Of a DNA stretch of 28,707 nucleotides, positions 9,770 through 28,707 are shown in pieces. Location: the IMG/VR virus record IMGVR_UViG_2778261009_000004. One strand, 5' to 3'. Position 1 is the stretch's first letter, and each line of letters begins with the position of its first letter. Under the pieces are notes generated by a model that saw only the letters and a program-made list of their open reading frames with translations, was not told the origin of the DNA and searched no databases. The stretch is from a virus. Taxonomy: Duplodnaviria; Heunggongvirae; Uroviricota; Caudoviricetes. The position numbers and the translations under genes were made by a program.

Positions 9770-9782
9770 GTTCTCCACCTGC

Positions 9783-9806: not shown

Positions 9807-9826
9807 AAATGATGAGTATCGTCCTG

Positions 9827-10576: not shown

Positions 10577-10581
10577 CTCCT

Positions 10582-11558: not shown

Positions 11559-11569
11559 CCCACACCTCT

Positions 11570-12161: not shown

Positions 12162-12204
12162 AACTGTCTCCGCACAGCCCCGTTCAGGGGCTGATTTCAG
12201 GTAC

Positions 12205-12225
12205 AAAAAAAGCCCTTACGGGCCA
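12205..12225 (-). terminator. Putative intrinsic terminator / attenuator downstream of the major capsid gene
   Basis: Minus strand GCCC-GTAA-GGGC (GNRA loop) followed by TTTTTTT, between the capsid stop (12248) and the next start (12161). Confidence 0.4.
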
Positions 12226-12247
12226 TCAGAGTTGTTGTCTGCGACGT

Positions 12248-14206
12248 TTACGCCGTACATTTCACCAGACCGCGGTGATCAACTGGCGCGACACCGGCGT
12301 CAATACGCACTTTCGTTGTCACGCCATCCACACTGAAGCCCTCCATCTGATCAATATATGGCGTATCCACACCGTTGAGATAAGCCACTTCAATCGTATC
12401 GGAGCCTTTTGACGCAGCCAGGTAGAAGGTGGTCTGGCTGTTATCATCAAGACGAGGCTCTGCAATAACGGTCGCAAAATCTTTCACCGGGTTAATAATA
12501 CCGGCGTTAATGTCAGCCCCCTTGACACTTGAGGAGCGAATGACCTGGTTAGCAACAGACTCCATCGCCGTCGGTACCAGTACGAACGCAGGACGAATAT
12601 TCAGATGACGCTCCCCCTCTTTCTGAACGCGCATCAACTGGCGGGCTTTATCCAGCGATGCCACGTCCATTGCCGCGCTCTCCAGTACGTTTGCATGTTT
12701 CGCTTTATCGAACAGACTTACATTATCTGTGGAGATTTTCGGGTTAGACGTCAGAATGGCATAAACCAGATCGGCAATAGTGGATTTCGCCGCACGGCCC
12801 AGTTTCATCGGGACATCGGTCAGCATATTCAGATCATCATTGATAATGGCCTGACGGGTGATACTGAACAGCTCGCCATAGGTCGCCAGTGCAATAGTGG
12901 CCTGTTTATCTCCGGTGGTGACGTATTTATATTCCGCCCCTTCACGCACCTGACGTAGAGCACTGAAGCCCCCCATACCCACACGATGGGCAATTTTAAA
13001 ATCAGACAACTGACCTTTCCGCGTCCACTGTTCATAGGTTTCAGGGGCATCTTCCCAGCCCTGCAGAATGGCTTTGTTCGCAACATCCAGCAGAATATTA
13101 CCGAAGTCAGACGTACTGTGTGTGAACGCCGCACCGACCATCTGCATCGGGTTATAACCGGAAACCCCAATACCCCGTTCAGTTAGTGACATACGGGCAT
13201 ATTCACGCAGGGTCATCCCGTTGTAGACATTATCACGTTCGGTTTTTTCAAATCCGGCACGCGCCATCAGCGCCTGGCGAATCCCGTCCCCCACAAAATT
13301 ACCGTTACCGGCATAAATATGAGCCGGGGTATTTTTATTGGATGGCGTGGACTCGCGCCCCATCTCGTTCAACAGCTTTTCACGGGCCTGCTCCAGCGAA
13401 CATTCAGGATCGGCAAGACACTGGGCCTGCAGCGTCTGATAACGCCCGCCAAACATGGCAAACAGATCATTAATACCGTTTACACGCGCTTTTTGCTCTG
13501 CCAGTACCTGCGCACGGATACTGTTTTCATCCACCACGGGTGCTGCTGCCTGCACTGGCGTCCGGGAGGCTGCAGGTTCATCATCCTGTACGCGTGGAGC
13601 ACTGTTGCGTGGCGGAGTAATCATGTTTCGAATGGATTCCGGCATCTTTTTAAATTCCTCTGTACGTTTTGACTGAATACATGCCATTGCCTTAACGGCT
13701 GGTGTCACCTGATCAGCAAATCCCTGTGCCAGACATTCGGCACCGGACATCCAGGTCTCATCCGCCAGCATGGCAGCAATTTCATCGGTGGTTTTCCCGG
13801 TTTTCTGTGCATAAGCGGGTAACAGAACCGCCTCAACTTTATCGAGCAGGTCGGCATAGGTGCGCATGTCCTCCGCATCACCGCCCGTAAAGCCAAATGG
13901 TTTATGAATCATCATGAAGGAGTTTTCCGGCATAATGACCGGGTTTCCCACCATCGCAATGACCGACGCCATTGACGCCGCCACACCGTCGACATAAACG
14001 GTAATGGACGCACCATGTGTTTTCAGTGCATTAAAAATGGCGATGCCTTCAAAGACATCGCCACCCGGTGAATTAATATGGAGATTAATGTGGGTGATAT
14101 CGCCCAGTGCATTCAGATCACTGATAAACTGCTTCGCTGTAACACCCCAGAAACCAATCTCGTCATAAATATAAATATCCGCGTCACTCTGGTGACCTGC
14201 CTGCAT
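12248..14206 (-). CDS. Prohead serine protease (ClpP/S49-like) fused in frame to a scaffold-like linker and an HK97-fold major capsid protein
   Basis: One uninterrupted ORF. N-terminal part DIYIYDEIGFWGV...INSPGGDVFEG...MMIHKP is ClpP-like; middle is a charged helical linker; C-terminal about 330 aa has HK97-type capsid motifs (...GYNPMQ...ITRQAIINDDLNML...). First ATG after the portal stop is 14206; the track ORF start 14467 overlaps portal. Confidence 0.8.
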   Translation of the reverse strand: MQAGHQSDADIYIYDEIGFWGVTAKQFISDLNALGDITHINLHINSPGGDVFEGIAIFNALKTHGASITVYVDGVAASMASVIAMVGNPVIMPENSFMMIHKPFGFTGGDAEDMRTYADLLDKVEAVLLPAYAQKTGKTTDEIAAMLADETWMSGAECLAQGFADQVTPAVKAMACIQSKRTEEFKKMPESIRNMITPPRNSAPRVQDDEPAASRTPVQAAAPVVDENSIRAQVLAEQKARVNGINDLFAMFGGRYQTLQAQCLADPECSLEQAREKLLNEMGRESTPSNKNTPAHIYAGNGNFVGDGIRQALMARAGFEKTERDNVYNGMTLREYARMSLTERGIGVSGYNPMQMVGAAFTHSTSDFGNILLDVANKAILQGWEDAPETYEQWTRKGQLSDFKIAHRVGMGGFSALRQVREGAEYKYVTTGDKQATIALATYGELFSITRQAIINDDLNMLTDVPMKLGRAAKSTIADLVYAILTSNPKISTDNVSLFDKAKHANVLESAAMDVASLDKARQLMRVQKEGERHLNIRPAFVLVPTAMESVANQVIRSSSVKGADINAGIINPVKDFATVIAEPRLDDNSQTTFYLAASKGSDTIEVAYLNGVDTPYIDQMEGFSVDGVTTKVRIDAGVAPVDHRGLVKCTA

Positions 14207-14219
14207 CCTGAACCAGGAA

Positions 14220-15728
14220 TTATTCTTCGGACTGGTCGTCGGTGTGCTGCGGCTCCTGTCGTTTCGTTGCGGCACTGCTGCCTCCTTTATCACTGGCCGG
14301 ATCGGTATCAAATACCAGATCCAGCTTGCGGTTTTCATCAATTTCGGCCTTGCGCCGACGTTTGACATCATCCGGATTACGACCACCTGCACGTACCCAG
14401 TCTGATTCTGTCGCCGCTCCACCACGAATCTGAATTTTCCAGGCCTCAGCCTCCTTAACAGGGTCAATCCACGGCATCACCGGTCCGGAATACACCGCGG
14501 TATACAGTGAAGAACGATCAAGATCGCGGGGTAGCCTGATAACACCGGATGCCACAGCCTGTTTCAGCCAGGCACGATACATCGGGCGGGTGACGGCACC
14601 AATAAACCAGTCCTGCAGGATCAGGTAGCCATCAGTGGATTCAACCAGCTCCTGACGCTGGGCGCTGTAAGTGCCGTTATAGTTGCGTGCCGTACTGGAA
14701 AAACTCAGACGACTGCCCGCCGCCACGGCACGCAACTGACCATTACGAAAAGTTTCAAGGTTAGGATTGGGACGATCCGACTTCACCATTCCGATTTCTT
14801 CGCCGGGTTTCAGATCGTCGTAAATAATGCCTGGCTGAATGGTAAGCTCGCGTTCATTCTCCTTGCTGCCATTACCATCCGGTTCATAGCTCTGCCCGTC
14901 GCCTTTCCGGATGTACATCCCCAGAGCAGCGGCGATCCTTGCTGCAGTCAGCTCAGAATCTTCATACTCTTTCAGGGCACTGAGGCGGATCAGCACACCG
15001 GACAACAAAGACGTCCCGCGCATCTGGTGCAGACGGCGAACAAATTTAAGATGCAGCATTCGCTCTGCATCCACTTCTTTGGTTTCCATCTGCCGCCCGG
15101 ATACGGGACGGCTTTTATACACCAGATATTTTTCGGGACGCCCCCAGTCATCAACAAACACGCCCTGATTCAGCCTGTTGCTCTCATCACTGGTCATGGG
15201 AATAAAGTCCGGCTCGAGCGCCTCCAGCCAGAAATGAACACCGGCAGAAGGCGTCAGGCTGTTTATGCGCCCGGAAACCATCTGGGCAAACACCTCACCA
15301 TCGCGCAGCCAGGTACGCAGCATCAGACGTTCCAGCATCGGACGGGTAAACTGCCCGGTGACTTCCGGACTGACAGACCATTCACTCCATCGGGTGCGTA
15401 TCTCCGCTGCCAGATCACGGGCAATGGCCCCATTGCGTAATACCGGATGTGGCTCGACAATAATCCCGTTTTTCCCCACCACCCGTTCTTCCAGCTTGTC
15501 AAATACACCAATAACCAGATCGTGGTTGTTATCAAGGTAACGGGCCTGCTCACGTAACGACACGGCCCCGTACTGGCTTAACTGGTCGGCAGTTCGGTTT
15601 TCCCGCCGGGCTTTGTGTGTCCGTGTCGTTTTTACGGCCTCATAAGCCTGGATCACCGCACGGGAACGCAGCCTTGCCGCTTTCCATCCTGGTGAAAAAA
15701 CGCCAATCACATCATCAAGAATTGCCAT
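14220..15728 (-). CDS. Portal protein (lambda B-like family)
   Basis: About 500 aa, located between the W-like gene and the protease-capsid gene; acidic C-terminus. ATG 15728 overlaps the W stop (TGATG); the track start 15800 is a longer extension. Confidence 0.85.
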   Translation of the reverse strand: MAILDDVIGVFSPGWKAARLRSRAVIQAYEAVKTTRTHKARRENRTADQLSQYGAVSLREQARYLDNNHDLVIGVFDKLEERVVGKNGIIVEPHPVLRNGAIARDLAAEIRTRWSEWSVSPEVTGQFTRPMLERLMLRTWLRDGEVFAQMVSGRINSLTPSAGVHFWLEALEPDFIPMTSDESNRLNQGVFVDDWGRPEKYLVYKSRPVSGRQMETKEVDAERMLHLKFVRRLHQMRGTSLLSGVLIRLSALKEYEDSELTAARIAAALGMYIRKGDGQSYEPDGNGSKENERELTIQPGIIYDDLKPGEEIGMVKSDRPNPNLETFRNGQLRAVAAGSRLSFSSTARNYNGTYSAQRQELVESTDGYLILQDWFIGAVTRPMYRAWLKQAVASGVIRLPRDLDRSSLYTAVYSGPVMPWIDPVKEAEAWKIQIRGGAATESDWVRAGGRNPDDVKRRRKAEIDENRKLDLVFDTDPASDKGGSSAATKRQEPQHTDDQSEE

Positions 15729-15940
15729 CAGAACCTCGCCAGCCGGTACCCGGGATGCCCCCGTCGTCGTGTAATCAGAGCCGCAAGGCGGCGCTCCCAC
15801 TCCTGCCGTCCCTGCCGGATCTCAGATAAGTTTTCCATGGTCATCTGCTGACCATTAAAGGTGACGGATTTTCCGTCCAGCACCGCCATTTCAGCTTCCG
15901 TATAACGCTGAATCATGGCTTCGATATCATTCTGGTTCAT
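15728..15940 (-). CDS. Head-to-tail joining protein W-like
   Basis: About 70 aa; C-terminal ...LITRRRGHPGYRLARF resembles the lambda W C-terminus (...RRRGPAGFYV, from memory). ATG at 15940 overlaps the terminase stop (ATGA). Order terminase-W-portal as in lambda. Confidence 0.7.
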   Translation of the reverse strand: MNQNDIEAMIQRYTEAEMAVLDGKSVTFNGQQMTMENLSEIRQGRQEWERRLAALITRRRGHPGYRLARF

Positions 15941-18039
15941 AACCATCCTCCGGAAGTCAGCCAGGGGTTAACATCGTCAGTTACTGTTTTCTTCCGTTTT
16001 TGTTTTTTAACAGGCGTGGATACCGGTTCCGGTGTGGGTGACGGTTCGGTACTGTCCGGGACACACTCCAGCCAGGTTTCCCGGCTCGCCCACTCCGGTG
16101 CATCCGGCCAGCGGATCTTTTCGTATCCATGCAGAATGACCAGAGCCTCGGCATACACCATCAGGTCAAAAGCTTCGTTGGCACCGCGACCCGGCTTACT
16201 CCATTTCCCGTCACTGCTCCGCTCTTCATACGTCAGTTCGTCGTAAAACCAGCTCCCCAGCCAGTCAGGGAAATGCACATAGCCGGGACCTGGCGAGTCA
16301 CGCCATAACGCGTTATTCACCCGGTCTTTCAGGGCATCCGTCTGAAGAAGCCAGAGCGGCACATGACCTGCGGCCTGCGCCCGGCGGCCCGTTCGTCCGG
16401 TGTTATCAGGGAATGTACGGCTGATCAGTTTTGCGCGCCGGATGCTGTCACCCTTAAACAGGTAAATACGTTTACCAAGGCCATCACGACGGCAACGACG
16501 CCAGAATTTATAGGCATTATCAGTGACCCCGTCTTCACCGCCGGAGTCCACCGCCATTGCCATCAGTCGCATTTGTTGAGAAGGATCGGAGGCCAGCGGC
16601 CAGCTTTTATGAAAAACATCCGTCAGCAGGACATCCCAGTCTTCCGGATAGCTGGCCGGATCAATTCGCTGGCTCTCCCCGTCGCTGTCACCGCGCAATG
16701 ACTGCGTGATGTTGTAACGATCAATAATCCAGCGTTCGCCACGGCTGCCATAGCCCGTTACCTGAACCACAAAACGGCGATGACGTCCCGCCTGCACATC
16801 CACTGTCGCCACAAGGAAATTAACGCCATCCGGCACACTGCGGGAAGGAACTGGCTCTGCCCGCTGCTCAAGCAATTCACTTTTTCGTTGCTCCATGCTG
16901 GCGCGGGGAAGATAAGGTAATCCCCAGTCGGTATTGATAACCGTCTTGAGTGTCTCTTCACTTCCGGTTGTCTCGTATTCCTGTTCTGCAGTAAGCAGTT
17001 TGTAAACGAGTTGCGAGAGTGTCTGATAAGCAGCTGCCGGACCCTCCATCCAGAATGACGCAATACGTGAACGCCGGGGATCACCATAACGACTGCCATC
17101 TGCATTGATGGATTCACCATCCCGTAACCAGACCCCACGTCCGTTCAGCTCGCGTTTTTGTTCAGGCAAAATCCGTCCTGAACAGGAAGGACACTGAATA
17201 TAAGCCGCCTCACTTGCCAGCACAGGATCGGCAATATCACGGAAACCAGCAACCACATCGCCGCAGGGCTGAAAATACTCACCACAGTGTGGACAGGGCC
17301 AGTACCAGCGACGGCGATCGCCACGGTTATAGAGCGACAGGATCCCCGTGGTTGGTGGAGCCTCATGCGGTGAAGTCCGTCGCCATTTCACATCCTTCAC
17401 ATCCCTGCCGGGGGAACTCTCCACCAGCGTCATACCACTGGACATAAATGTGGTGGTACGTTTTGAGGCAAGAGAGAAGGCATCCCCCTCACCATCAATA
17501 TCTTCCGGAAAACGGTCATAATCCGTCAGCGCCACGCATTTATAATCTGATGAAGACATGATATTGACTGACGGCCAGCCGATTTTCAGGTAGTTGCCAG
17601 CAAGGACTGTTCTGTCATAAACGTTGTTGTCATTTTTGTTCGGACTCAGGCGACTGACCACTTCCGGGCTGACGCGAAACGTTCTGGCGAGTCGTTTTTT
17701 GGAGTGTTCGCGGGCTTTTTCCTCCGTCATCTGAATGATCAGCATATCAGCAGGATCGCAAATCACGTTGTAAATCACCCAGCCGTCAATCAGGCCGATA
17801 GTCTTGCCGGTTCGTGCCGGGCCAACAAATATCACTGCGTCGTATTCACGCGAGGCCAGGCAGTTCATAGGCTCAATAACATACGGTGCCACCAGCGGAT
17901 CCCACGGGACTGAGTTCCCTGCCCCCATAGGCACCCGCATATACTGAGCAACGGCATCAGCAACCCGCATTCGTCTCGGTGCGCGAAGGATATAACCTGA
18001 ATCGGTTCGTGCTGCCTTTGCGGTTTCCTGATTCAGCAT
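15937..18039 (-). CDS. Terminase large subunit (GpA-like)
   Basis: 700 aa; Walker A VIFVGPARTGKT; Cys cluster CPHCGEYFQPCGD...CPSCSG; start overlaps the small-subunit stop (TAATG). Confidence 0.9.
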   Translation of the reverse strand: MLNQETAKAARTDSGYILRAPRRMRVADAVAQYMRVPMGAGNSVPWDPLVAPYVIEPMNCLASREYDAVIFVGPARTGKTIGLIDGWVIYNVICDPADMLIIQMTEEKAREHSKKRLARTFRVSPEVVSRLSPNKNDNNVYDRTVLAGNYLKIGWPSVNIMSSSDYKCVALTDYDRFPEDIDGEGDAFSLASKRTTTFMSSGMTLVESSPGRDVKDVKWRRTSPHEAPPTTGILSLYNRGDRRRWYWPCPHCGEYFQPCGDVVAGFRDIADPVLASEAAYIQCPSCSGRILPEQKRELNGRGVWLRDGESINADGSRYGDPRRSRIASFWMEGPAAAYQTLSQLVYKLLTAEQEYETTGSEETLKTVINTDWGLPYLPRASMEQRKSELLEQRAEPVPSRSVPDGVNFLVATVDVQAGRHRRFVVQVTGYGSRGERWIIDRYNITQSLRGDSDGESQRIDPASYPEDWDVLLTDVFHKSWPLASDPSQQMRLMAMAVDSGGEDGVTDNAYKFWRRCRRDGLGKRIYLFKGDSIRRAKLISRTFPDNTGRTGRRAQAAGHVPLWLLQTDALKDRVNNALWRDSPGPGYVHFPDWLGSWFYDELTYEERSSDGKWSKPGRGANEAFDLMVYAEALVILHGYEKIRWPDAPEWASRETWLECVPDSTEPSPTPEPVSTPVKKQKRKKTVTDDVNPWLTSGGWL

Positions 18040-18533
18040 TACTCCTCCTGCTGTAATTCCTCCTCATCATCCGCACCTGCTTCAGTCACCCGCAGGGCTA
18101 TCTGATCGCGCAGATCATCAATAATGGACTGAACACGGCTCACAGCGGCAGGCTGCAGACCGCAGTCACGTTCAAGAATATCCGGTAATGTCTCCAGCAC
18201 CTGCACGACCGCTTTTGCCCAGATGGCAAACTCCCGTCTGACATCACTGGCCGGAATGAGTTGTGCCGTTTCCTGTTCGAACTTAAGACGCTCACGTTCA
18301 GACTGATACCAGGCTTTGCGCTCATGCGCGTCCATTTCGCCTTCTGCAACCGGCGGTGGTAATGCCAGAAATGCCGACACAATATCAACCACCCGATAAA
18401 GCTTGAGGTTGCTTTCATGCCCCCCTGCAACGGGTAGATTTTGCAGCCTTGCCGCAGCAGTCTGGCGATGTACACCTGACAATGCCGCCAGTTGACTGAT
18501 ATTCAGCGTCAGATTTTTTAACTCTCGATCCAT
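18039..18533 (-). CDS. Terminase small subunit (Nu1-like, N-terminal HTH)
   Basis: 164 aa; N-terminal LNISQLAALSGVHRQTAAARL helix-turn-helix and acidic C-terminus; immediately downstream of the cos-like site. Confidence 0.8.
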   Translation of the reverse strand: MDRELKNLTLNISQLAALSGVHRQTAAARLQNLPVAGGHESNLKLYRVVDIVSAFLALPPPVAEGEMDAHERKAWYQSERERLKFEQETAQLIPASDVRREFAIWAKAVVQVLETLPDILERDCGLQPAAVSRVQSIIDDLRDQIALRVTEAGADDEEELQQEE

Positions 18534-18702
18534 ACCCGCTCCAGAATGTTTTAAACATGCATCTTGCGAACAACTTTAGGCAAACGGTGTTAGTGATGAA
18601 CAAAAAACAATCAGAATCGACACCATAAAAATAAAACCACTGTAATATCAATCAATTACAGTAGTGGTGATGACGAATAAAATTTCAAAAACTAGCCTTT
18701 TT

Positions 18703-18722
18703 CCGCGACGCTCCCGCCCCGT
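18703..18722. other. Putative cos site (cosN core with predicted 12-nt cohesive end GGGCGGGAGCGT, minus-strand orientation, 18708..18719)
   Basis: Minus strand reads ACG GGGCGGGAGCGT CGCGG. Lambda reads ACG GGGCGGCGACCT CGCGGG (from memory): flanks identical, core differs in 5 positions. Located about 170 nt upstream of the Nu1-like gene, with AT-rich (cosB-like) DNA in between. Confidence 0.5.
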
Positions 18723-19085
18723 GGTAGGGACCCCCACTGGGAGGACCCGACAGCCTGACAACCGTTACGAGCATCTGAAACAGAGCTTTACATAATGGCA
18801 TGGGGATAATTCAGAAGGACATCACAGCATGCCCACACAAATTAGTGTGAGTGTCCTGTTTCTTACTACGCGCAGGACTGACGAGCATGAGGGGAAAATA
18901 CGCGAACCGAAATGCCTTATCTTCAGAAATGCAGCCGGCATCCGAACTGGACGATATTGTAAATTCACCTAAATACGAGGCATTACTGTAGTTGAATTGC
19001 AGTACTGTATTAGCCTTACAGTGACAGAATACGATATTGACTCTGTCACTTGTGAAATGGTCAGAATGGTTAGCAGTTATGGTGA

Positions 19086-19292
19086 TCAGTCAACCACCAG
19101 GGAATAATCCTTCGTATTCTTATCGTGCTTTACTAACGCGGCCTCAATTGCCCTGAATGCTTCCAGAGATACTTGATGTTCTATACATGCAATTACAACA
19201 TCCGGGTAACCCATCGAAATGGTGCTATTAAGCATAGTTTTTACACGAACCTGCTCCTGGGAGGGGGCATCAGTGTATTGATCTTTATGCAT
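19086..19292 (-). CDS. Hypothetical small protein (moron between cos and lysis genes)
   Basis: 68-aa ORF with no family I can recognise; soluble composition. Confidence 0.4.
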
Positions 19293-19587
19293 TTTGTCGC
19301 TCCATTCGTTTGCTCTTCACTTGCGGCTAAAAATATAACGTCAAATCACTCAGCATGAAAGAGTGAAAGTTTCAGCGCGTTTCCCTTACATAATCTGTCG
19401 TTTGTATTCTCTTCAGGCATACCGGAAAGACTAGGTATTGTCACACAACCAATACCATCGACAATCGAGATTTATATCTATTCGGTAATGTTTAAATATA
19501 ACAAAACCCCGTAAAAACGAGGTTTATGGGTAATTTGTATTGTTGAATAGCATCTGATGAGAAATTGATGCTAATACTATAAACATG

Positions 19588-19764
19588 CTAGATTAAATCA
19601 ATCTTGATATCATAGCTTTCAAGACCAGTCATTTTTTCCCGTGCAGTAAACTGGATACTGGTAACTTCTTTCCCGGTCTTTTTCTTAAGCTCAATGATTT
19701 TTTTTGTTATATATTCAGAAATATCTGCTTCTGTTTTTGTTTTTAACTCTTCAATGTTCATCAT
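19588..19764 (-). CDS. gnsB: GnsB-like small protein (Gns family)
   Basis: Own translation: MMNIEELKTKTEADISEYITKKIIELKKKTGKEVTSIQFTAREKMTGLESYDIKIDLI, 58 aa, SD AAGAGGAA. Resembles E. coli GnsA/GnsB (about 57 aa, ...FTAREKMTGLESYD...). Below the track's size cut-off. Confidence 0.7.
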   Translation of the reverse strand: MMNIEELKTKTEADISEYITKKIIELKKKTGKEVTSIQFTAREKMTGLESYDIKIDLI

Positions 19765-19933
19765 TTCCTCTTTTAGTCTGTTATGACTGTCCTAGTACAC
19801 AGTAGTGTCAATTATATGGAGCAAACGTATAAAAGATAAGATGAAACATCGCAATAATCAACATACGACGGTCTAAATTTCACACAAACAGATAAAGATG
19901 ATTATCATTTATTATCAATGCATTAGAATCAAA

Positions 19934-20203
19934 TCAATTCAAGAGTCTCATTGCTGCTTCCAGAATTTCTTCTGAAGTTACATGTCGATCCGCTGCTACA
20001 TAAATGACTTTATGATCTCCGGTCAGAGATGGAAACCCTGCAGCCATTACAGTGAGGTGTGTTGTTTCGCCATTTGGATATTCACGCATGATGGTGTTAA
20101 CTCCGGTCATCACTGGCACTACCATTGCTGGTTCAGAGTTAAAAAAAACTATTATTTTTTTCATAATGTTACCGTAATATGTGAGTATCCATCGACTAGA
20201 CAC
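19934..20203 (-). CDS. Hypothetical protein (possibly YnfN-like)
   Basis: 89-aa ORF; an internal start MKKIIVFFNSEP... near 20164 is possible. Lies between gnsB and cspI, where Qin carries ynfN (from memory). Confidence 0.4.
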   Translation of the reverse strand: MSSRWILTYYGNIMKKIIVFFNSEPAMVVPVMTGVNTIMREYPNGETTHLTVMAAGFPSLTGDHKVIYVAADRHVTSEEILEAAMRLLN

Positions 20204-20212
20204 TAAGCAAAA

Positions 20213-20232
20213 AAGCTCCCGAAGGAGCCTTC
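20213..20232 (-). terminator. Putative terminator downstream of cspI
   Basis: Minus strand GGCTCC-TTCG-GGAGC followed by TTTTTTGC. Confidence 0.35.
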
Positions 20233-20435
20233 ATTTTCACTTTCTTAAATCTAACGACAGATGGCTAACATTTAAGTATTGTGAAATATTATCAAATGTA
20301 ATCATCATTGATTTACAAAAGATACATTTTGCCCCGAAAGGATTTCTGTCAGAAACATCAAAAGATGATGTTCTATACTGAGAACCATGGCAACACGGGC
20401 ATCTAAAGTGAATATGGTTTGTAATATTTTCTACC

Positions 20436-20651
20436 TCAAAGTGCCACTACATGAACAGCTGCAGGGCCTTTAGGTCCGTTCTCAATACCAAATTCGACTT
20501 CCTGATTCTCAGTTAACGTTTTGAAATCGTTGCTCTGAATAGCTGAGAAATGCACAAACACATCTTTGCTACCATCTTTCGGCGTGATGAAACCAAAACC
20601 TTTTTCAGGGTTAAACCATTTCACTAAACCAGTCATTTTGTTAGACATCAT
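20436..20651 (-). CDS. cspI: Cold-shock protein CspI
   Basis: (M)[70 protein letters not shown], matching E. coli CspI as remembered. Confidence 0.9.
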
Positions 20652-21011
20652 TATTACCTTTTGAAGAAGTTAGCCCTTGGGCAGAATGGTCCGAAAAAAA
20701 ATATCAGAGAGAAAAACCAACAAGGAAATCTCAAGAGGTACAAATAATAAAATTATAACAATGACTGCTTCAGATAATTTTGTAACAAACCAGAACACCA
20801 TTAACGCATGATTAACCAACCATAGCAAGGATTACTTTTGTAAAGAAAAACACACGAATGAAACAATAGCTTTATTTATTAATAAAACGTGTCATTTTGT
20901 CTAATGACCTTTTATCTTACCCTTAAGATTTCAAGGATTTTGACTCATGGAAGAGTCCTTTTTATTTAAATTTCACATTCAGCGCTAAAAATAATCCGAT
21001 TTAATATTAAT

Positions 21012-22039
<1,028 letters not shown>

Positions 22040-22350
22040 AGATATTTATGATGAGGACGCTCGTGCTTATTGGCAGGATTTTCAATCTTAAAGGAGTACT
22101 GATGCTGCAGATAAGACTCAACTTTTCTGACAATTTTTCTGCTACTTCCAGGAAGACTTGCCGGACGCTCATTCTGGCTGCTGCCTCATAAAACTCCAGC
22201 GTAGCTCCTTCAACACGGTCCATGGCGACATCCAGGCCAAAAATTTCACCGTCAAAGCGTTCTTTGTCCTGTAAGGCTACAGTTACCGTAACTTTATTCT
22301 CAAAATTACGGACTCCTTTCACAACCAGTTCATAGTCTTGAGTCATTGGA

Positions 22351-22566
22351 TTATTCTCCTCTCGCAGCCTTACGCCTGTCTTCTTTAATCTTGAAATAAA
22401 GATTTGTCAGATACGTCAGCAGGCCAAAAACCAGGCTACCCAGCACACCGATTGCAGCCCACTGTGACGGAGTTACTTTATCGAGTAACTGCAATGCCCA
22501 GAAACCAGCATTACCCGCCGATGTGCCATAGGCAACACCTGTTGTTAACTTATCCATTGATTTCAT
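22351..22566 (-). CDS. Class II holin / pinholin (S21-like) with dual-start motif
   Basis: [28 protein letters not shown]...[35 protein letters not shown]: two transmembrane segments, MKSMDK dual start (antiholin/holin), SD GGTGAGGA. The track ORF extends to 22641. Confidence 0.85.
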
Positions 22567-22785
22567 ATCCTCACCCCGATGTACACGGATGGTGCAATAT
22601 GTTTGAAAAGATCGGAGTCTACGGGGTAGTTTTGACAGCACACGTTGTTCTCAACGGCGCTAAAAAAACATACACATTAAAAATGTGGGTAATTATTTTG
22701 AAAGAAAGTCATATATAAAATAATAATACGAGAAATGTTTTCATATTTAGTGTACTGTATACGGCCATTTATACAGGAAAAGCCT

Positions 22786-22956
22786 ATGTCAGAACGTAAA
22801 GACTCAAAATCACGCCGTAATTATCTCGTTAAATGTTCCTGCCCAAACTGCACCCAAGAGTCAGAACACAGTTTTTCAAGAGTACAAAAAGGTGCCCTTT
22901 TGATCTGCCCTCATTGCAACAAAGTATTCCAGACAAATCTTAAAGCTGTAGCCTGA
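22786..22956 (+). CDS. Small zinc-ribbon protein (moron; possibly YdfK/YnaE-like)
   Basis: MSERKDSKSRRNYLVKCSCPNCTQ...ICPHCNKVFQ: CxxC...CxxC. SD AGGAAA 6 nt upstream of ATG 22786. The track ORF starts at 22735. Confidence 0.5.
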   Translation: MSERKDSKSRRNYLVKCSCPNCTQESEHSFSRVQKGALLICPHCNKVFQTNLKAVA

Positions 22957-23019
22957 TTGATTTTATTAGTAACAAGTATTTTTTATATTTTAATAATATA
23001 TTTAAAGCAGATAATAAAA

Positions 23020-23037
23020 AACCCGCCTGAGCGGGTT
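23020..23037. terminator. Intrinsic terminator hairpin (mainly minus-strand orientation)
   Basis: AACCCGC-CTGA-GCGGGTT with an A/T run on the flanks; on the minus strand the hairpin is followed by TTTTTATTAT. Confidence 0.45.
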
Positions 23038-23319
23038 TGAGATTGTGGTGCTTTTTGTGGGAGTCATCCACTTACGCACTTTGTTTTGCGATGCCAGCAG
23101 TTAGCTTCTGCTGTGAAACTATTCATGCAGCAAACCTGCACTTCACCACAATGGTTAGCATACTTTTCCTGATTAAGATTTTGCCAAATATGCTGGCCAT
23201 TGTTTCATGTATTGGACCTCCTTACTTTTTATTAAAGAGATCCAATATTCAATACTCTGTCCGTATCTCTACTCAGGCATCAGCCTTCTTCGTTATCGTA
23301 TACAGACGAGCGATGAATT

Positions 23320-23535
23320 TTAATCAGTAATGATGACATTTGCTGCTGCAGGACCTTTAGCACCACTCTCTATAGAGAAGGTAACCTTTTGACCTTCAAA
23401 TAAGGTTCGATAATTATCATTCTGAATCGCAGAAAAATGCACAAACACATCTTTACTACCATCAACAGGAGAAATAAAGCCGAAACCTTTATCAGCGTTA
23501 AACCATTTTACTAAACCAGTCATTTTATTTGACAT
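23320..23535 (-). CDS. cspB: Cold-shock protein CspB
   Basis: [71 protein letters not shown], matching E. coli CspB as remembered. Confidence 0.9.
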
Positions 23536-23845
23536 TCTACATTCCTTAACTTGAGCCTTTCGGCATAAATGGTTTGCATAACAGAAACGACTTCGTACTT
23601 AATTGGAGAGACTCAAAGAAGGAATAAGTGAATAACACCTGAAATGAGAACTGCTTTAGTAAACTACTTCGTATATCGTCTGTTCTTCAAACCGACGCAG
23701 TCATTAACTCATAGTTGAACATATGAAGCAATGTTTATTTTAGACATCCAGCCACCTTCAACCCTATCAAAAAAGTAGTTTTCTCCAGGAACGTGTGTAT
23801 GGTGCACCAGGTTATCAGTATTAAGGAGTTTTTCTGTCCCCTAAA

Positions 23846-24050
23846 ATGACAGGAATTGTCAAAAACTTTGACTACAAAAGCAGCAAAGGTCTTATATTCC
23901 CATCCGATGGCGTATCGATGCCCAGCTTCACGTTTCAGCTCTCAATCTTCGAGATGCAGAAGAAATTACCACAGGATTACGCGTGGAATTTTGCCGGATA
24001 AATGGTTCGCGTGGACCTTCAACTGCCAATGTTTATCCCGGGATGAGATT
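23846..24050 (+). pseudogene. cspF: cspF/cspH-like cold-shock gene disrupted by a frameshift
   Basis: Frame 1 from ATG 23846 encodes the N-terminal cold-shock-domain motif [22 protein letters not shown] then junk until a stop at 23999. The rest of the domain ([42 protein letters not shown]) lies in another frame from about 23910. The frames switch at GATGGC|GTATCG, about 23909-23912. Confidence 0.55.
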
Positions 24051-24082
24051 CAATATCTCTATTGCCCCATTTAAAGCACAAA

Positions 24083-24102
24083 AACCCGCTTATAAGCGGG
24101 TT
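24083..24102. terminator. Bidirectional intrinsic terminator (candidate tR' for the late operon leader; also 3' of the cspF-like gene)
   Basis: AACCCGC-TTATAA-GCGGGTT followed by TTTTCTACTTTTTT on plus; on minus it is followed by a T-rich run. About 110 nt downstream of the Q stop. Confidence 0.5.
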
Positions 24103-24150
24103 TTCTACTTTTTTCTAAACGTCGGATACACAAAGCCCATCGTTGAGAAA

Positions 24151-24179
24151 ATCTTATCCATGTTTTTTGAAAAATGCAA
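24151..24179 (-). promoter_or_regulatory. Candidate late promoter (PR'-like) immediately downstream of Q
   Basis: Minus strand: -35 TTGCAT (24179..24174), 17-bp spacer, -10 TAAGAT (24156..24151), followed about 50 nt later by the terminator hairpin. Pattern match only. Confidence 0.3.
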
Positions 24180-24210
24180 ACATCATGTCGCCATCTTCAG
24201 CAAAAATCAT

Positions 24211-24963
24211 TTATCTCGTCACCTTCCTCAATTGCGCTTCCGCGTATGCTTCTTCCTGCCAGCACTTTGTTACCAGTTTACCAATGACGTCCGCATACCC
24301 CTTATACCACTGATAATCGGTCAGGTCTGGTACCAGCTTCTGGACATGACGTCGTGCCAGCGTGGTCGGTAAACGACTAAACCGGTTTCCATTACAACGC
24401 CCACAAATCTTATATACCGGTACGCCATGAAACCGGGTTCTTTTTTCATCCAGAACAATCCCTTTACCCTTACACCCTCTGCACGCTGTGCTGACTTCGC
24501 CCTTACCATGGCAATGCTGACATAGTTCCTTTACCCATTCTTCCTTGATTACAGATTCCCCGCGTCTGTAGTGTTTCACCACTTCGCGCAATACATTATA
24601 AAATCCCGTACCTGAACAATGCTCACAGCGAGCCTTACTTGCCGCAGACCTGGAGTAATCAGCAAAGGCAAAATTCACGAGGTAAGGAATAATCTGTAAC
24701 CGGATTTCTTCACTCAATTTGTTCAATGTCGGGTTATCCAGTGCCATCGCGTAATTTAGCAGGCCTTCAATCGCAAACTGAGGGTCCTGAACACCAACTT
24801 TTGCCAGAAATAAGGCCAACCCAAGTGGTGCTTTCGACTGCACCATCCCCTGCGCTGCCATTACATCCGTAATTGTTAAACAACCGGTGCCTGTCGCTGG
24901 AGCGTCATCGCTCAATTTTGGAGATTTTGGGGAGTAATATTTTGGTAAGGCTTCAAGGTTCAT
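24211..24963 (-). CDS. Late-gene antiterminator Q (Qin quuQ-type, four CxxC pairs)
   Basis: 250 aa; CEHCSGTG...CQHCHGKG...CRGCKGKG...CGRCNG zinc-binding motifs; located immediately upstream of the late region. Confidence 0.8.
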
Positions 24964-24976
24964 GCTCGTTCTCCAC

Positions 24977-26065
24977 TTACGCCAGTACGCCAGTTGCCAG
25001 CGCGCGATCGATAAAACGAAATATCAGCTCCAGTTGGGAGCCATACTTCTCTTCAAATGCCACTGTATCCGTATGCAGCTCGTTGTGATGCTTTCTGCAC
25101 AAAGGCAACACAAAGAGATCATGTGCTTTTGTTCCCATTCCGCCCTGCCCGTGACCAATCAGATGATGCGGATCGTCGGCTGGCATACCGCAGCAAGCAC
25201 ACGGCTGTGTCTTAACCCAACGAGTGTATTTCTCCTTAACCCAGCGGCGACGTTTAGGCAGCTTCATGAAAGATTCCGGAGACTCTGGATCAACGGTGAT
25301 GCTTACCACCGTCTTTTCCTGTGGTGGTTTTTGTTGCTGTTGGGCGTAAGGCAACGGTGCAAGATTTTTTGTGCGTTGTTTCAATATGCTGGTGGCGGTC
25401 TGCTCTCCCGGTACGATGTCGCTTTCGCGGTACACCGAGCAGATTTTTTCCGCTGGTAATCCCAGCGAACGACGCGATACAGCCTCAGGTAGTGCATCTA
25501 CCACCTGATTGCAGACCGCCCACCAGGATAATTCAGCCAAAGATAATTCCCGCTCCTGCGTACCGCTTATTGCGTGACGGATGACGTCAATCACCCATGC
25601 TGTCAGATTTTGTTGAGCAAGCAGCTCCAGTGATTCCGATGTCTGGTCACGCAGATGGTTGTCGCAGTGCCAGCACAACACCATTGCGCCGGTACCATAA
25701 CGGTGAATGACTGTTTCAGTGTGATGGTAATCGCCATTAGGCCACTGGCAGGATGTAACATGACGTAATAGCCAGTCAGACAATGCGCCAACGCCGCCAG
25801 CAGCACGAATCACCCGTTCGTTACTAAAAAACGGCAGCAATGTTTTGTCTTCCGCCAGCGGCTGGCGAACGGCAGGAACGACTCCGGATGGCAGATTACG
25901 CATGCTTTTTGGTTCCGGTTCCACCAGCACTCGAGGATTATGAAATATCTGTATGGATTCACGGCCCGGCTTAAGGACCACCAGCCCAAGCTCAGGCACC
26001 AGAACAGGTCTAAGTAATACCCGCACGTTACCTCCAGATCCGTTGCTGGAAAGTGCGGGACGCAC
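24977..26065 (-). CDS. DUF968 protein (YdfU-like) with C-terminal HNH-like Cys/His motif
   Basis: 362-aa ORF; C-terminal ...CACCGMPADDPHHLIGHGQGGMGTKAHDLFVLPLCRKHHNELH resembles an HNH/His-Me finger. True start may be an internal Met (for example about 25903). Confidence 0.6.
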   Translation of the reverse strand: MRPALSSNGSGGNVRVLLRPVLVPELGLVVLKPGRESIQIFHNPRVLVEPEPKSMRNLPSGVVPAVRQPLAEDKTLLPFFSNERVIRAAGGVGALSDWLLRHVTSCQWPNGDYHHTETVIHRYGTGAMVLCWHCDNHLRDQTSESLELLAQQNLTAWVIDVIRHAISGTQERELSLAELSWWAVCNQVVDALPEAVSRRSLGLPAEKICSVYRESDIVPGEQTATSILKQRTKNLAPLPYAQQQQKPPQEKTVVSITVDPESPESFMKLPKRRRWVKEKYTRWVKTQPCACCGMPADDPHHLIGHGQGGMGTKAHDLFVLPLCRKHHNELHTDTVAFEEKYGSQLELIFRFIDRALATGVLA

Positions 26066-26306
26066 GTGGTGGGCGTTCGGAATAAGGCAGCCTGACAGAG
26101 ATTATCCAGTGCCGATAGTCGAGACTGAGAGCTTTCTTAACCTCGAACCCGCGCCTGCGGTAAGAATGAATCAGCCATTCGGCCTGTTCTGCAGTGCATG
26201 GAGGGTGCTGGAACCATTCAGACTTGAATGCGTGAGAATACCGCCCGTGCGTGCAGGCAAGAACGGGCGAATTATCAGAATTGTAATATTTTACGTTGCG
26301 TGCCAT
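26028..26306 (-). CDS. Hypothetical protein
   Basis: 92-aa ORF upstream of, and overlapping, the DUF968 ORF; no family recognised. Confidence 0.35.
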   Translation of the reverse strand: MARNVKYYNSDNSPVLACTHGRYSHAFKSEWFQHPPCTAEQAEWLIHSYRRRGFEVKKALSLDYRHWIISVRLPYSERPPRASRTFQQRIWR

Positions 26307-26372
26307 CGGTTTTCTCCGGTGGCACGGTGTTACTCAGCGGGAGTTCAGCCCCGTGCAAGATTGTAGATGAGT

Positions 26373-26624
26373 TTATTCTTCTGCAAAAGCTGAAAAGCCT
26401 GCTTTTATTCCGATCTCTTTCAGTGCCTGTAATGAAGTGACAAACTCACCTTCGCGCAAGATAAATCCGTCCGTGACCCGAGCATCCACAAAATTAATTA
26501 ACGCAGCTCCATTCTTTCGCAAACACATAATGCGGTAATGACTAACAAGATTTCCATTTTCAACGCACACAGCATAGAGGCCATCTTCACAAAAAATTTT
26601 ACGCAGTTCTTCGATGTTCATCAT
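26373..26624 (-). CDS. rem: Rem-like protein (Qin prophage)
   Basis: 83-aa ORF MMNIEELRKIFCEDGLYAVCVENG... in the position (between hokD and DUF968) and of the length of E. coli rem, from memory. Confidence 0.6.
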   Translation of the reverse strand: MMNIEELRKIFCEDGLYAVCVENGNLVSHYRIMCLRKNGAALINFVDARVTDGFILREGEFVTSLQALKEIGIKAGFSAFAEE

Positions 26625-26754
26625 CAGAATCCTTCCGGATAATTAGCTCTCCCCTTTAAGGGACCATCCCTCTTCTCCCTGCGCGCTACTTAAGTATTTT
26701 TGATTCTATTCCGGCACCGTCCAGAACTTCAAACGCGTTGAAAATAAAAACAAA

Positions 26755-26772
26755 AACCCGCCGAAGCGGGTT
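26755..26772 (-). terminator. Intrinsic terminator of the relB-relE-hokD operon
   Basis: Minus strand AACCCGC-TTCG-GCGGGTT (UUCG loop) followed by TTTTGTTTTTATTTT, about 70 nt after the hokD stop. Confidence 0.6.
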
Positions 26773-26840
26773 AAGTGCGGGTGCGTTGAGGATGCCTGCC
26801 ACATCAGAGGTGGCGAGGGATTTCTCCCTCGCCGGGTCTC

Positions 26841-26996
26841 TTACTCCTCAGGTTCGTAAGCTGTGAAGACAGCGACCTCCGTCTGGCCGGTTCGGATTCG
26901 TACCTCGCAAAGGTCTTTCCTCGTTACCAGTGCCGTCACTATGACGGTTAAACAGATGACGATCAGGGCGATTAACATCGCCTTTTGCTGCTTCAT
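26841..26996 (-). CDS. hokD: Hok-family membrane toxin HokD (RelF)
   Basis: Own translation: MKQQKAMLIALIVICLTVIVTALVTRKDLCEVRIRTGQTEVAVFTAYEPEE (51 aa). Not in the ORF track because it is under 60 aa. Confidence 0.9.
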   Translation of the reverse strand: MKQQKAMLIALIVICLTVIVTALVTRKDLCEVRIRTGQTEVAVFTAYEPEE

Positions 26997-27066
26997 AGCC
27001 TGCTTCTCTGTCAACGCAAAGCAGAAGTGTCACCTTCGGTGCGAAACAGAGATGTCATGCTTTGGT

Positions 27067-27354
27067 TCAGAGAATGCGTTTGACCGCCTCGCTATATACT
27101 TCCGAGCGTTCTCTTTTCCCAACAGAAATCACGAAAACGACAACTTTCTCGTCTATAACCTGGTATACAAGGCGATAGCCTGAAGACCGGAGCTTAATCT
27201 TGTAACAATCAGGCATACCACGGAGCTTGTTTGCTTCAATCCGGGGTGACTCAAGTACTTCAACCAGCTTCTTTTTCAACTGTTCACGTACCGTCGAGCC
27301 CAGCTTTCGCCATTCCTTTAGTGCCCGCTCGTCAAAATCCAGAAAATACGCCAT
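27067..27354 (-). CDS. relE: mRNA interferase toxin RelE
   Basis: 95 aa, MAYFLDFDERALKEWRKLGSTVREQLKKKLVEVLESPRIEANKLRGMPDCYKIKLRSSGYRLVYQV..., matching E. coli RelE as remembered. Confidence 0.93.
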   Translation of the reverse strand: MAYFLDFDERALKEWRKLGSTVREQLKKKLVEVLESPRIEANKLRGMPDCYKIKLRSSGYRLVYQVIDEKVVVFVISVGKRERSEVYSEAVKRIL

Positions 27355-27593
27355 CAGAGTTCATCCAGCGTCACACGTACTGGCTTAGGATTACGAAGCC
27401 GTTCTTTCACTATCTCCACAAGTTCAGCATCTTCATCACTCAGGAGTGTCTGTTTGAACGGCAAGCGTTCATTGTCAGCGATATACTCGAGCATGAGACG
27501 AAGCGCTTCAGAAGGAGTTACACCCATTTTTTCAAGCGCGGCGTAAGAACGCGCTTTAAGTTCATCGTCAATACGCAGGTTAATGCTACCCAT
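27354..27593 (-). CDS. relB: Antitoxin RelB
   Basis: 79 aa, MGSINLRIDDELKARSYAALEKMGVTPSEALRLMLEYIADNERLPFKQTLL...; stop overlaps the relE start. Confidence 0.93.
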   Translation of the reverse strand: MGSINLRIDDELKARSYAALEKMGVTPSEALRLMLEYIADNERLPFKQTLLSDEDAELVEIVKERLRNPKPVRVTLDEL

Positions 27594-27604
27594 GTCTTAC
27601 ACCT

Positions 27605-27630
27605 CTTGTAATTACAAATGTCATTACAAG
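27605..27630 (-). promoter_or_regulatory. relBE operator (relO-like) overlapping the relB promoter/leader
   Basis: Perfect 12-bp palindrome TTGTAATTACAA (27606-27617) plus a second half-site ATTACAAG (27623-27630), 12-37 nt upstream of the relB ATG (SD AGAGGTG). Confidence 0.6.
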
Positions 27631-27923
27631 TATCGCACTACAACATGCTTAGGGCAAGTCACGAAGGAAGTCAGAAAGTAGTCGTAAGAACGGTGATCAC
27701 TGTCCGCTTTGTGCCAGGAGCAGCCATTGCTAAGTCCATCCTGTATTGTGCAGGTCAGCTCATTTTTAAAGAGTCCGGCCATCATCTTACTGGTACAGAC
27801 ACCATATACTTTGTGACGGTCAGGCTACATATGCACAACTCAACTTATTCATCTATTTTTTGCTTTAGCATGTCAGTGTTGCTTTCTCGTCGGCGGGTGA
27901 GCGGTGACCTGACCTGTCGATAA
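27618..27923 (+). CDS. Hypothetical protein (possibly YdfV-like)
   Basis: 101-aa ORF between relB and flxA; composition not convincingly protein-like. Kept only because Qin carries a gene of about this length here (from memory). Confidence 0.25.
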   Translation: MSLQVSHYNMLRASHEGSQKVVVRTVITVRFVPGAAIAKSILYCAGQLIFKESGHHLTGTDTIYFVTVRLHMHNSTYSSIFCFSMSVLLSRRRVSGDLTCR

Positions 27924-28075
27924 AGGAACGTAGCACGTTTTATGCAACACCCGCATGCGGCAGAAAATTATTGCCGAACGTTTACCCCTGTCAACAAGCT
28001 TTACTTTCTGAGGCGCGCCAGCCCGCTAGGAAAACAATCTGAACATCAAACAATTAATGACACAAGAAATACGAT

Positions 28076-28102
28076 TAAAGATTTTTTTGTGCATGCCGAT
28101 AG
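28076..28102 (+). promoter_or_regulatory. Sigma-28 (FliA) promoter of flxA
   Basis: TAAA (28076-28079), 15-nt spacer, GCCGATAG (28095-28102), against consensus TAAA-N15-GCCGATAA; about 25 nt upstream of the flxA SD AAGGAGA. Confidence 0.65.
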
Positions 28103-28125
28103 TGCTTTTTTAAAAGGAGAAATCT

Positions 28126-28458
28126 ATGTCTGTCACAATTCAGGGAAATACCTCAACCGTTATTTCAAACAACTCCGCCCCGGAAGGAACATCAGAAATA
28201 GCCAAAATCACAAGACAAATTCAGGTGCTGACTGAAAAGCTTGGGAAAATCTCATCGGAAGAGGGGATGACGACACAGCAGAAAAAAGAAATGGCTGCAT
28301 TGGTACAGAAGCAAATTGAAAGCCTCAGGGCTCAACTGGAGCAGTTGTTAAGGCAGCAGGCAGAGAAAAAGAATGAAGACGCGACAGTTCAGCCTGATAA
28401 AAAAGAAGAGAAAAAAGACGATACAAATACCGCTGGCACCATTGATATTTACGTCTAA
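28126..28458 (+). CDS. flxA: FlxA (FliA-regulated protein)
   Basis: 110 aa, MSVTIQGNTSTVISNNSAPEGTSEIAKITRQIQVLTEKLGK..., coiled-coil, Q/K/E-rich, matching E. coli FlxA as remembered. Confidence 0.85.
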   Translation: MSVTIQGNTSTVISNNSAPEGTSEIAKITRQIQVLTEKLGKISSEEGMTTQQKKEMAALVQKQIESLRAQLEQLLRQQAEKKNEDATVQPDKKEEKKDDTNTAGTIDIYV

Positions 28459-28472
28459 GTGACAGCCGTATT

Positions 28473-28495
28473 GTGGCCCTCATCGGGCCACTTTT
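28473..28495 (+). terminator. Intrinsic terminator of flxA
   Basis: GTGGCCC-TCATC-GGGCCAC followed by TTTT, 15 nt after the flxA stop. Confidence 0.55.
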
Positions 28496-28581
28496 CGCCA
28501 TCAGCCTTTTCTTTAAAGACATATTATCTTTGTATCATTTCTGATAGTTAACATTACAAGATATAAGTAATGGACGCACTC

Positions 28582-28707
28582 TGAACCGCCCCGGGAATCC
28601 TGGAGACTAAACTTCCTGAGAAAGAGGTAAACAGGATGACTAAAAATACTCGTTTTTCCCCCGAAGTCCGTCAACGGGCAGTCCGTATGGTTCTGGAAAG
28701 TCAGGAT
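28582..28707 (+). mobile_element. Left end of an IS3-family insertion sequence (IS629-like), running off the right edge
   Basis: Terminal sequence TGAACCGCCCCGGGAATCCTGGAG...; SD AAAGAGG then ATG 28636 encoding MTKNTRFSPEVRQRAVRMVLESQD, the N-terminus of the IS629/IS3-family OrfA transposase as remembered. Confidence 0.7.
28636..28707 (+). CDS. IS3-family transposase OrfA, N-terminal fragment (truncated by window end)
   Basis: Own translation MTKNTRFSPEVRQRAVRMVLESQD (HTH region). Confidence 0.7.
   Translation, partial: MTKNTRFSPEVRQRAVRMVLESQD

Follow-up and report, generated by a model that had tools for sequence, protein, structure and literature searches.

The stretch of DNA analysed here (IMG/VR virus record IMGVR_UViG_2778261009_000004; referred to as the window) is the entire 28,707-bp draft contig NMAY01000041.1 of assembly GCA_002536795.1, and it carries the late-gene and virion-gene half of a lambdoid prophage of the Qin family, so named after the Qin prophage of Escherichia coli K-12. 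Nearly all genes lie on the minus strand, ynfU, cspF, ydfV and flxA being the named exceptions on the plus strand. From right to left the order is flxA, ydfV, relB, relE, hokD, rem, an open reading frame (ORF) of 92 amino acids (aa), ydfU, Q/ydfT, cspF, cspB and ynfU, followed by essQ, ydfR, rrrQ, rzpQ/rzoQ, cspI, ynfQ/ynfR/ynfN, gnsB, a 68-aa ORF and then the virion genes from the small terminase subunit gene (terS) to J. The left contig end falls inside lom and the right end inside an element resembling the insertion sequence (IS) IS629, both being typical repeat-induced assembly breaks, and int, xis, the att site, the immunity genes (dicA, dicC, dicB) and the replication genes lie off the contig. 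The element is very probably a mosaic of a Qin-type part (19451-28581), with a nin-like region, Q, a lysis cassette and morons, and a part of the type known from phage mEp460 (1-18533), with a DUF1441 terS, a GpA-type large terminase subunit gene (terL), a portal, a ClpP-capsid fusion and lambda-like genes Z through J, while K-12 Qin would have come from a sibling with a lambda-type head introduced by Nu1/A.

Similarity to K-12 Qin and to mEp460

The Qin locus of MG1655 is colinear with the right part of the window, at 94.9% DNA identity over 19451-24035 and 99.1% over 24036-28581. When the K-12 proteins were placed on the window by tblastn, with Pfam as support, they matched in the same gene order at approximately 90-100% aa identity, and RelB, RelE, HokD, CspB, CspI, EssQ and RrrQ were among those identical to the products of K-12 Qin (NC_000913.3, 1632277-1652745). 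The families RelB, ParE/RelE, DUF968, Antiterm, CSD, YnfU, P21-type holin, GnsAB, HOK_GEF, FlxA, DUF2514 and DUF1327 were confirmed. The gene set and order from relB-relE-hokD to gnsB, with flxA adjoining, which a sequence-only reading of this DNA had ascribed to Qin, was therefore recovered in full. This colinear flxA-to-gnsB region with its high DNA identity to K-12 assigns the element to the Qin family, and the alignment indicates that the likeness reflects homology, not chance. Of the interval 18534-28581 for which the sequence-only reading had proposed an alignment with K-12 Qin, 19451-28581 proved syntenic and its right edge at 28581 is the exact junction with the IS629-like element, but 18534-19450 falls outside the K-12 alignment. 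This latter segment forms the joint between the two modules; it has no counterpart in K-12 Qin, stands at the position of ydfO-ynfO-nohA, contains the 68-aa ORF (19086-19292, minus strand) and is found likewise in the E. coli genome KE58, in phage HannyBb and in two near-identical relatives of the window (L009 and L019).

All 18 proteins from TerS to J of the plaque-forming phage mEp460 found a full-length match in the window, with no stop codon and at 94.6-100% identity (J, 90.2%; tblastn), and at the DNA level window 1-18558 is 97.7% identical to mEp460. The module is of the mEp460/cdtI type, as seen from its DUF1441 terS, GpA-type terL, portal, ClpP-capsid fusion, cement protein and Z-U-V-G-T-H-M-L-K-I-J. 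The earlier statement that terminase through J and lom are all present and in frame thus held for terS to J, whereas only the first 49 codons of lom precede the contig end.

In K-12 Qin, head, tail and replication genes are missing (PMC10448788); the annotated locus lacks terL through most of stf and contains nothing between nohA and a truncated stfQ, in agreement with the statement in the sequence-only reading that its structural genes are largely deleted. Similarity between the two elements ends at window 19451, where K-12 continues with ydfO, ynfO and nohA. K-12 Qin keeps these three genes; the window lacks them and contains a complete block that includes a DUF1441 terS. NohA of K-12 belongs to Pfam Phage_Nu1 (PF07471, E 2.7e-101), and no tblastn match to NohA, YnfO or YdfO was obtained in the window. 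Because nohA/Nu1, ydfO and ynfO in K-12 stand against a DUF1441 terS here, the window appears to be a mosaic sibling of K-12 Qin, related to the ancestor of the latter but not that ancestor itself. Further differences on the side of the window are a 258-bp deletion (cspF', ynfS), a frameshift allele of ydfR and the IS629-like element after flxA.

The packaging region of the window is thus unlike the K-12 remnants ydfO-ynfO-nohA, whereas that of phage PhiR42_1 (PV340562) agrees with them. Every segment that K-12 Qin retains, among them nohA, stfQ, the dicA-dicB region and intQ, has a match of 99.86-99.89% in PhiR42_1, and the PhiR42_1 record shows both ends of K-12 Qin side by side, as expected of an excised attP form. 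Its head and tail genes (Nu1-A-W-B-C/Nu3-D-E-FI-FII-Z-U-V-G-T-H-M-L-K-I-J-lom-stf-tfa) are of the lambda type, whereas those of the window are of the mEp460 type. PhiR42_1 has Qin-type early, nin, Q, lysis and moron genes, with 95-99% DNA identity to window 19451-28581, and its tail tip genes L-J share 92% DNA identity with window 1116-5669; over 5670-19450, however, there is no comparable DNA similarity, the sole aligning stretch being 10110-11231 at 66%, and its tail shaft genes are its own, unlike those of the window. Mapped on PhiR42_1, K-12 Qin shows three lesions, namely a deletion of approximately 21 kb that starts at the Nu1/A boundary and reaches into stf, another of approximately 4.8 kb over the replication region and an IS2-associated loss in the exo/xis/int region. 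These comparisons indicate that the near-exact intact form of K-12 Qin is a PhiR42_1-type phage with a lambda-type head rather than the element in the window.

Near-identical relatives and recurrent decay

Relatives of the window were found by exact-sequence look-ups of its 129-aa YdfR and its YdfU alleles (labels L008-L023), whereas a look-up of its J allele led back to the contig itself (L024). Relatives with 99.93-99.97% identity to the window up to 28581 exist in full and in deleted forms. The head genes are kept in L009 and L019 (99.93-99.97%); in L014, L016, L018 and L023 a deletion starts within terS (window 18186) and reaches the 3' part of stf, and in L017 and L021 one starts within terL (window 17931) and extends as far as the end of stf. 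All of these deleted loci continue into tfa, pinQ, ydfK, ynfT and ydfJ. KE58, L014, L016 and L020 (98-99.97% identity) sit at ydfJ, and dicA, dicC and dicB are present in the 99.97% relatives L017, L019 and L020, with ydfW, DUF977, an O-like gene, YdaT, Cro and DicA following past 28581 in L019. Since 99.97% relatives at ydfJ lack the block, the window represents the form of its lineage before deletion, and on at least two occasions this lineage has decayed in the same way as K-12 Qin. The idea of the sequence-only reading that the window may display an ancestral, possibly inducible, stage of this prophage family was not supported with respect to K-12 Qin, given the DUF1441 terS against the Phage_Nu1 nohA and the unmatched ydfO, ynfO and nohA; what stands is a Qin-family element with a complete morphogenesis block, undeleted with respect to its own lineage but not the intact form of K-12 Qin.

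Together with K-12 Qin (L002 9840 against L004 24216/45353), the two deletions in the window lineage make three independent losses of approximately 21 kb. Each begins within a few hundred bp of the start of the terminase genes and ends in approximately the last kilobase of stf; lysis and moron genes remain at one flank and tfa-pinQ-ydfK at the other, and the junctions have 2-11 bp of microhomology. The recurrence could reflect selection that keeps the lysis, moron and pin/tfa ends while shedding virion genes, and selection and a deletion hotspot may be regarded as alternatives. The Pin invertase was considered as a cause of the deletions and rejected, its published crossover sequence TTGGTTTGGGAGAAGG being unmatched, even with as many as 3 mismatches allowed, in the window, KE58, K-12 Qin, PhiR42_1 and the deleted loci.

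As to prevalence among the 5426 complete E. coli genomes, 1345 contain 80% or more of window 18534-28581 at a single place, and 608 of the 5426 contain 80% or more of window 3708-28707.

The IS629-like junction

The last segment of the window (28582-28707, plus strand) is the left end of an IS3-family element resembling IS629, with a terminal inverted repeat that begins TGAACCGCCCCGG and is followed by the first codons of orfA (MTKNTRFSPEVRQRAV...). Its alignment with the IS629 copy in VT1-Sakai begins at base 1 of the left inverted repeat annotated there and shows 6 mismatches over the first 126 nucleotides (nt) of the element, which are all that the contig contains of it. The insertion lies 123 nt past the flxA stop codon with an exact junction at 28581/28582, and every relative loses similarity to the window at 28581. 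The exact flxA/IS junction was absent from the 5426 complete E. coli genomes, the GTDB species representatives and the JGI metagenomes, these searches yielding an IS3-family element near flxA in 12 genomes at other positions, and none of the relatives with the YdfU allele has it. The insertion therefore appears to be private to this assembly. Since int, xis, the immunity genes and the replication genes are not on the contig and an IS629-like element follows flxA, the contig itself is silent on inducibility.

In most Qin-type elements an ISNCY-like transposase gene (446 aa if intact) was observed between flxA/ydfW and the replication genes (L004 11567-12880; L008-L010 2111-3451; L016-L023 5791-7131). 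PhiR42_1 has transposase genes, in split form, in the flxA-to-replication interval, and extra mobile DNA at this place is thus compatible with a complete phage genome.

Features of the late and moron region

At the right of the region, ydfV and flxA (27618-28458, plus strand; flxA, 28126-28458) are 99% identical to the K-12 proteins, FlxA belonging to PF14282. On the minus strand follow relB (27354-27593), relE (27067-27354) and hokD (26841-26996), that is, hokD and the relBE toxin-antitoxin pair (26841-27593), all at 100% to K-12 and with Pfam HOK_GEF, RelB and ParE_toxin matches, and then rem (26373-26624, minus), a homologue of the DicA antirepressor (PMC10448788) with 97.6% identity to K-12 Rem. 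The interval 24211-26306 (minus) comprises the 92-aa ORF, ydfU (DUF968/HNH-like; 24977-26026, 98.3% to K-12, DUF968 E 1.8e-76) and the antiterminator gene Q/ydfT (24211-24963, 99.2% to K-12, Antiterm PF03589, E 2.9e-54). A terminator scan located a GC-rich hairpin with A/T-run flanks at 24081-24114, approximately 100-130 nt downstream of Q. The hairpin is conserved in K-12, KE58 and HannyBb, is retained despite the 258-bp deletion and is a putative tR'-type terminator of the late promoter region. The late-control genes are present (Q, a P21-type holin, a lysozyme, DUF2514 with embedded rzoQ), together with this hairpin.

The sequence-only reading had listed cspF among the genes, and the gene does stand at that place in the order (23834-24035, plus strand), but as a pseudogene. 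Alignment with K-12, KE58 and HannyBb and a split tblastn match reveal a 1-nt deletion and the loss of its 3' end, together with ynfS, in the 258-bp deletion at 24035/24036; the missing 258 bp are present in K-12, KE58, PhiR42_1 and HannyBb. The spacing of 676 nt between Q and cspB suggests that this deletion allele is common to many relatives (L008-L023). The neighbouring cspB (23320-23535, minus, 100% to K-12 CspB) is accompanied by a cspA-type thermoregulator 5' untranslated region (feature 23304-23696, minus; Rfam RF01766, 158.8 bits), and ynfU (22786-22956, plus), which encodes a small zinc-binding protein, is 98.2% identical to K-12 YnfU (PF23499).

The lysis cassette (21012-22566, minus; tblastn, Pfam P21-type holin and DUF2514) consists of the holin gene essQ (22351-22566, 100% to K-12), ydfR, the endolysin gene rrrQ (21506-22039, 100%), rzpQ (21012-21509, 89.7% to K-12 RzpQ) and rzoQ embedded in it (21062-21316, 95.2% to K-12 RzoQ). 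In ydfR (DUF1327; 21957-22346) the loss of 1 nt from an A-run carries the reading frame 83 nt into rrrQ and yields a product of 129 aa. This exact protein is listed in 971 index blocks and accompanies heads of the lambda type as well as of the mEp460 type, and the frameshift is thus a common allele, neither a private defect nor a sequencing error. The moron block beyond it (19588-20806, minus; tblastn to K-12) contains gnsB (19588-19764, 93% to K-12), ynfN, ynfR, in whose match there is an internal stop codon, ynfQ and cspI (20436-20648, 100%), the latter with a cspA-type leader (RF01766 at 20390-20806, minus, 110.1 bits). An Rfam scan of the window returned these two cspA-type leaders only, hok/sok and other families remaining below threshold. 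cspB and cspI are prophage-borne cold-shock genes with long 5' leaders, and from the two Rfam matches both keep a cspA-type RNA thermosensor.

Features of the packaging, head and tail block

Pfam families for this block, all of whose genes are on the minus strand, were assigned on the contig itself (L024) and on the near-identical relative L009. The small terminase subunit (DUF1441, 164 aa; 18039-18533; PF07278, E 2.7e-41) starts at 18533, matching the 164-aa terS annotated in KE58. In the RefSeq record of mEp460, terS is annotated from base 1 (L005 1-60 against window 18499-18558), and a 1-nt A-run difference puts an upstream ATG in frame in mEp460 and out of frame in the window. Position 1 of the mEp460 record was considered as cos and rejected, the record just beginning at the ATG of the annotated terS. 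The large subunit (700 aa, 15937-18039) is 99.6% identical to mEp460 TerL, with GpA_ATPase and GpA_nuclease domains in L009, and is followed by the portal and a small W-like head-tail adaptor (14220-15940; 99.4% and 100% to mEp460; Phage_portal_2 in L009) and by the 675-aa fusion of a ClpP-like prohead protease with the major capsid protein (12248-14275; 99.2% to mEp460; PF00574 and PF25209, in line with the KE58 annotation).

The tail shaft and connector genes (9042-12161: T, G, V, U, Z, a Gifsy-2-family protein and a DUF2190/cement protein) are full length at 94.6-100% to mEp460 with Pfam support, as are the tape measure protein H (1021 aa, 6005-9070, 98.2%, tape measure Pfam domains) and the tail tip genes I, K, L and M (3674-6005, 97-100%; Lambda_tail_I, NLPC_P60, Phage_tail_L, Phage_min_tail). 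The host specificity protein J (1132 aa, 215-3613; 90.2% full length to mEp460 J, GpJ domains) is diverged in its C-terminal part, and window 253-657 has no DNA match in KE58. This 3' end of J (253-657, minus strand) has no close DNA match in mEp460 or PhiR42_1 either, while the rest of J matches. The receptor-binding C-terminal end of J therefore points to a possible swap of the host-range determinant. Finally, the first 49 codons of lom (2-148) align with residues 1-49 of mEp460 Lom at 93.9% (tblastn; PF06316 Ail_Lom on the 49-aa call).

Regulation and alternative explanations

From lambdoid phage biology and the published work on K-12 Qin, the prophage would be silenced by the DicA repressor, encoded off the contig, until the Rem antirepressor, encoded on it, or a DicA/DicC bistable switch lifts repression. 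Q would then antiterminate late transcription through the hairpin just downstream of its gene, allowing transcription to reach the holin, endolysin and spanin genes and then the morphogenesis operon, while csp, gns, relBE and hokD would be morons expressed from the prophage. Rem is an antirepressor of DicA, and heat or urea derepress as well, whereas mitomycin C fails to derepress the K-12 Qin promoter dicBp (PMC10448788). Because mitomycin C has no effect on dicBp, the mitomycin C induction assay proposed by the sequence-only reading is ill suited; it is probably the wrong inducer for an element controlled by DicA and Rem and may give a false negative. Tentatively, and with considerable reserve, we propose that the source copy might be a naturally inducible Qin-family phage under SOS-insensitive control by DicA and Rem, in which a private IS629-like insertion separates the early region from the Q operon, and, separately, that the deletions of approximately 21 kb are perhaps selected. 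If true, the insertion would offer a natural test of whether late expression depends on read-through from early promoters or on an independent route, and the element a handle on the signal that triggers Rem.

That the window is the ancestral, undeleted state of K-12 Qin itself is very unlikely, even though the late and moron region reaches 99.1% DNA identity in the same gene order, the structural block is just what K-12 is missing (PMC10448788) and relatives of the window occupy ydfJ, the same locus as Qin. K-12 similarity stops at 19451, the ydfO, ynfO and Nu1-family nohA genes of K-12 are met by a DUF1441 terS in the window, and PhiR42_1 follows K-12 Qin at 99.86-99.89% across nohA and stfQ with a lambda-type head unlike window 5670-19450, which together refute the ancestral state for the packaging and head module. 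Still less credible is an assembly chimera of two prophages joined via a shared repeat: the contig is of short-read draft style with repeats at both ends, and the source genome probably contains several lambdoid prophages, but the arrangement is continuous across 18039-19451 in closed genomes such as KE58 and the 608 that hold at least 80% of the 25 kb, and recurs in L009 and L019 at 99.93-99.97%.

With regard to the present state of this copy, we lean slightly towards a prophage that is defective despite intact virion genes, being on its way to a K-12-like remnant and disabled by the IS629-like element or by lesions off the contig. In line with this, the IS629-like junction is peculiar to this assembly, cspF and ydfR bear lesions (a pseudogene and a frameshift, respectively), the lineage decays readily, with two independent terminase-to-stf deletions among 99.97% relatives, and intQ mutations have been reported to be frequent in Qin-locus prophages (PMC6379469). 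However, the essential late and structural genes are all undamaged, the alleles of ydfR and of the 258-bp deletion are widespread, and PhiR42_1 has a transposase gene in the corresponding interval between flxA and the replication genes. A fully functional, inducible temperate phage is a possible but clearly less probable reading, for which the 18 intact morphogenesis genes, the intact Q, holin, endolysin, spanin and rem genes, the same modules in sequenced phages and the DicA, Cro, YdaT, O-like and DUF977 proteins encoded upstream in the 99.97% relative L019 would speak. Against it, int, xis, immunity and replication genes are off the contig, genes for the side tail fibre and for tail fibre assembly were not seen on it, the private insertion that separates flxA from the early region may prevent read-through to Q or be the trace of a deletion, approximately six of the eight listed places with an identical YdfU allele are deleted forms, and dicBp of K-12 Qin does not respond to mitomycin C.

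Several points also weigh against the mosaic, Qin-family interpretation preferred here. Since int, the integration site, immunity and replication genes lie outside the contig, membership of the family for that half rests on near-identical relatives; the putative tR' is a consensus hairpin only; the IS629-like element after flxA could mark a simple insertion or a rearrangement; and the virion origin of PhiR42_1 and HannyBb rests on GenBank records (phage names, indicator host, attP-joined ends), no paper describing the PhiR phages having been found.

Comparison with known phages and prophages

The element belongs to a common and known kind of mosaic lambdoid prophage, and nothing in it is new. 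Its value lies mostly in correct annotation, in that a PhiR42_1-type phage and not an mEp460-type mosaic represents the intact K-12 Qin, and the family conveniently illustrates module exchange as well as the way in which one prophage lineage can decay independently, and more than once, at the same locus. A published survey found the prophages at the Qin locus of 189 strains to measure between 11 and 97 kb, with genes for capsid, tape measure and host specificity in the larger of them (PMC6379469). A prophage with the same mosaic as the window is found in KE58 (NZ_CP141075.1), where it shares 98.3% identity over window 3708-28581 and occupies ydfJ, the Qin site. It extends on one side into lom, stf, tfaQ, pinQ and ydfK, and on the other into ydfW, replication genes, Cro/cI (dicC/dicA), ydfABC, dicB, ydfD, exo, xis and int. 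It differs from the window in having intact cspF and ynfS, a 103-aa ydfR, a different C-terminus of J and, beyond flxA, a truncated ISNCY transposase in place of IS629.

The packaging, head and tail module is shared with mEp460 (NC_019716/JQ182728) and phage cdtI, but mEp460 has another integrase, an S24-type cI repressor and other replication genes and late region, and it matches only 25% of window 18534-28581, at 88.8%. Both modules occur together, as in the window, in HannyBb (PP925841; 99.2% over 18686-24035 and 94.7% over 597-17940), in Tritos (OV696610; 95-96% over both parts) and in mEp460_ev081 (LR597641). The latter three phages lack relBE, ydfV and flxA, their matches ending at approximately window 27008, keep the 258 bp that are lost in the window and are free of the IS629-like element. 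Of these, mEp460_ev081 has been described as a functional temperate phage bearing dicB, dicF, dicAC and rem (PMC10448788).

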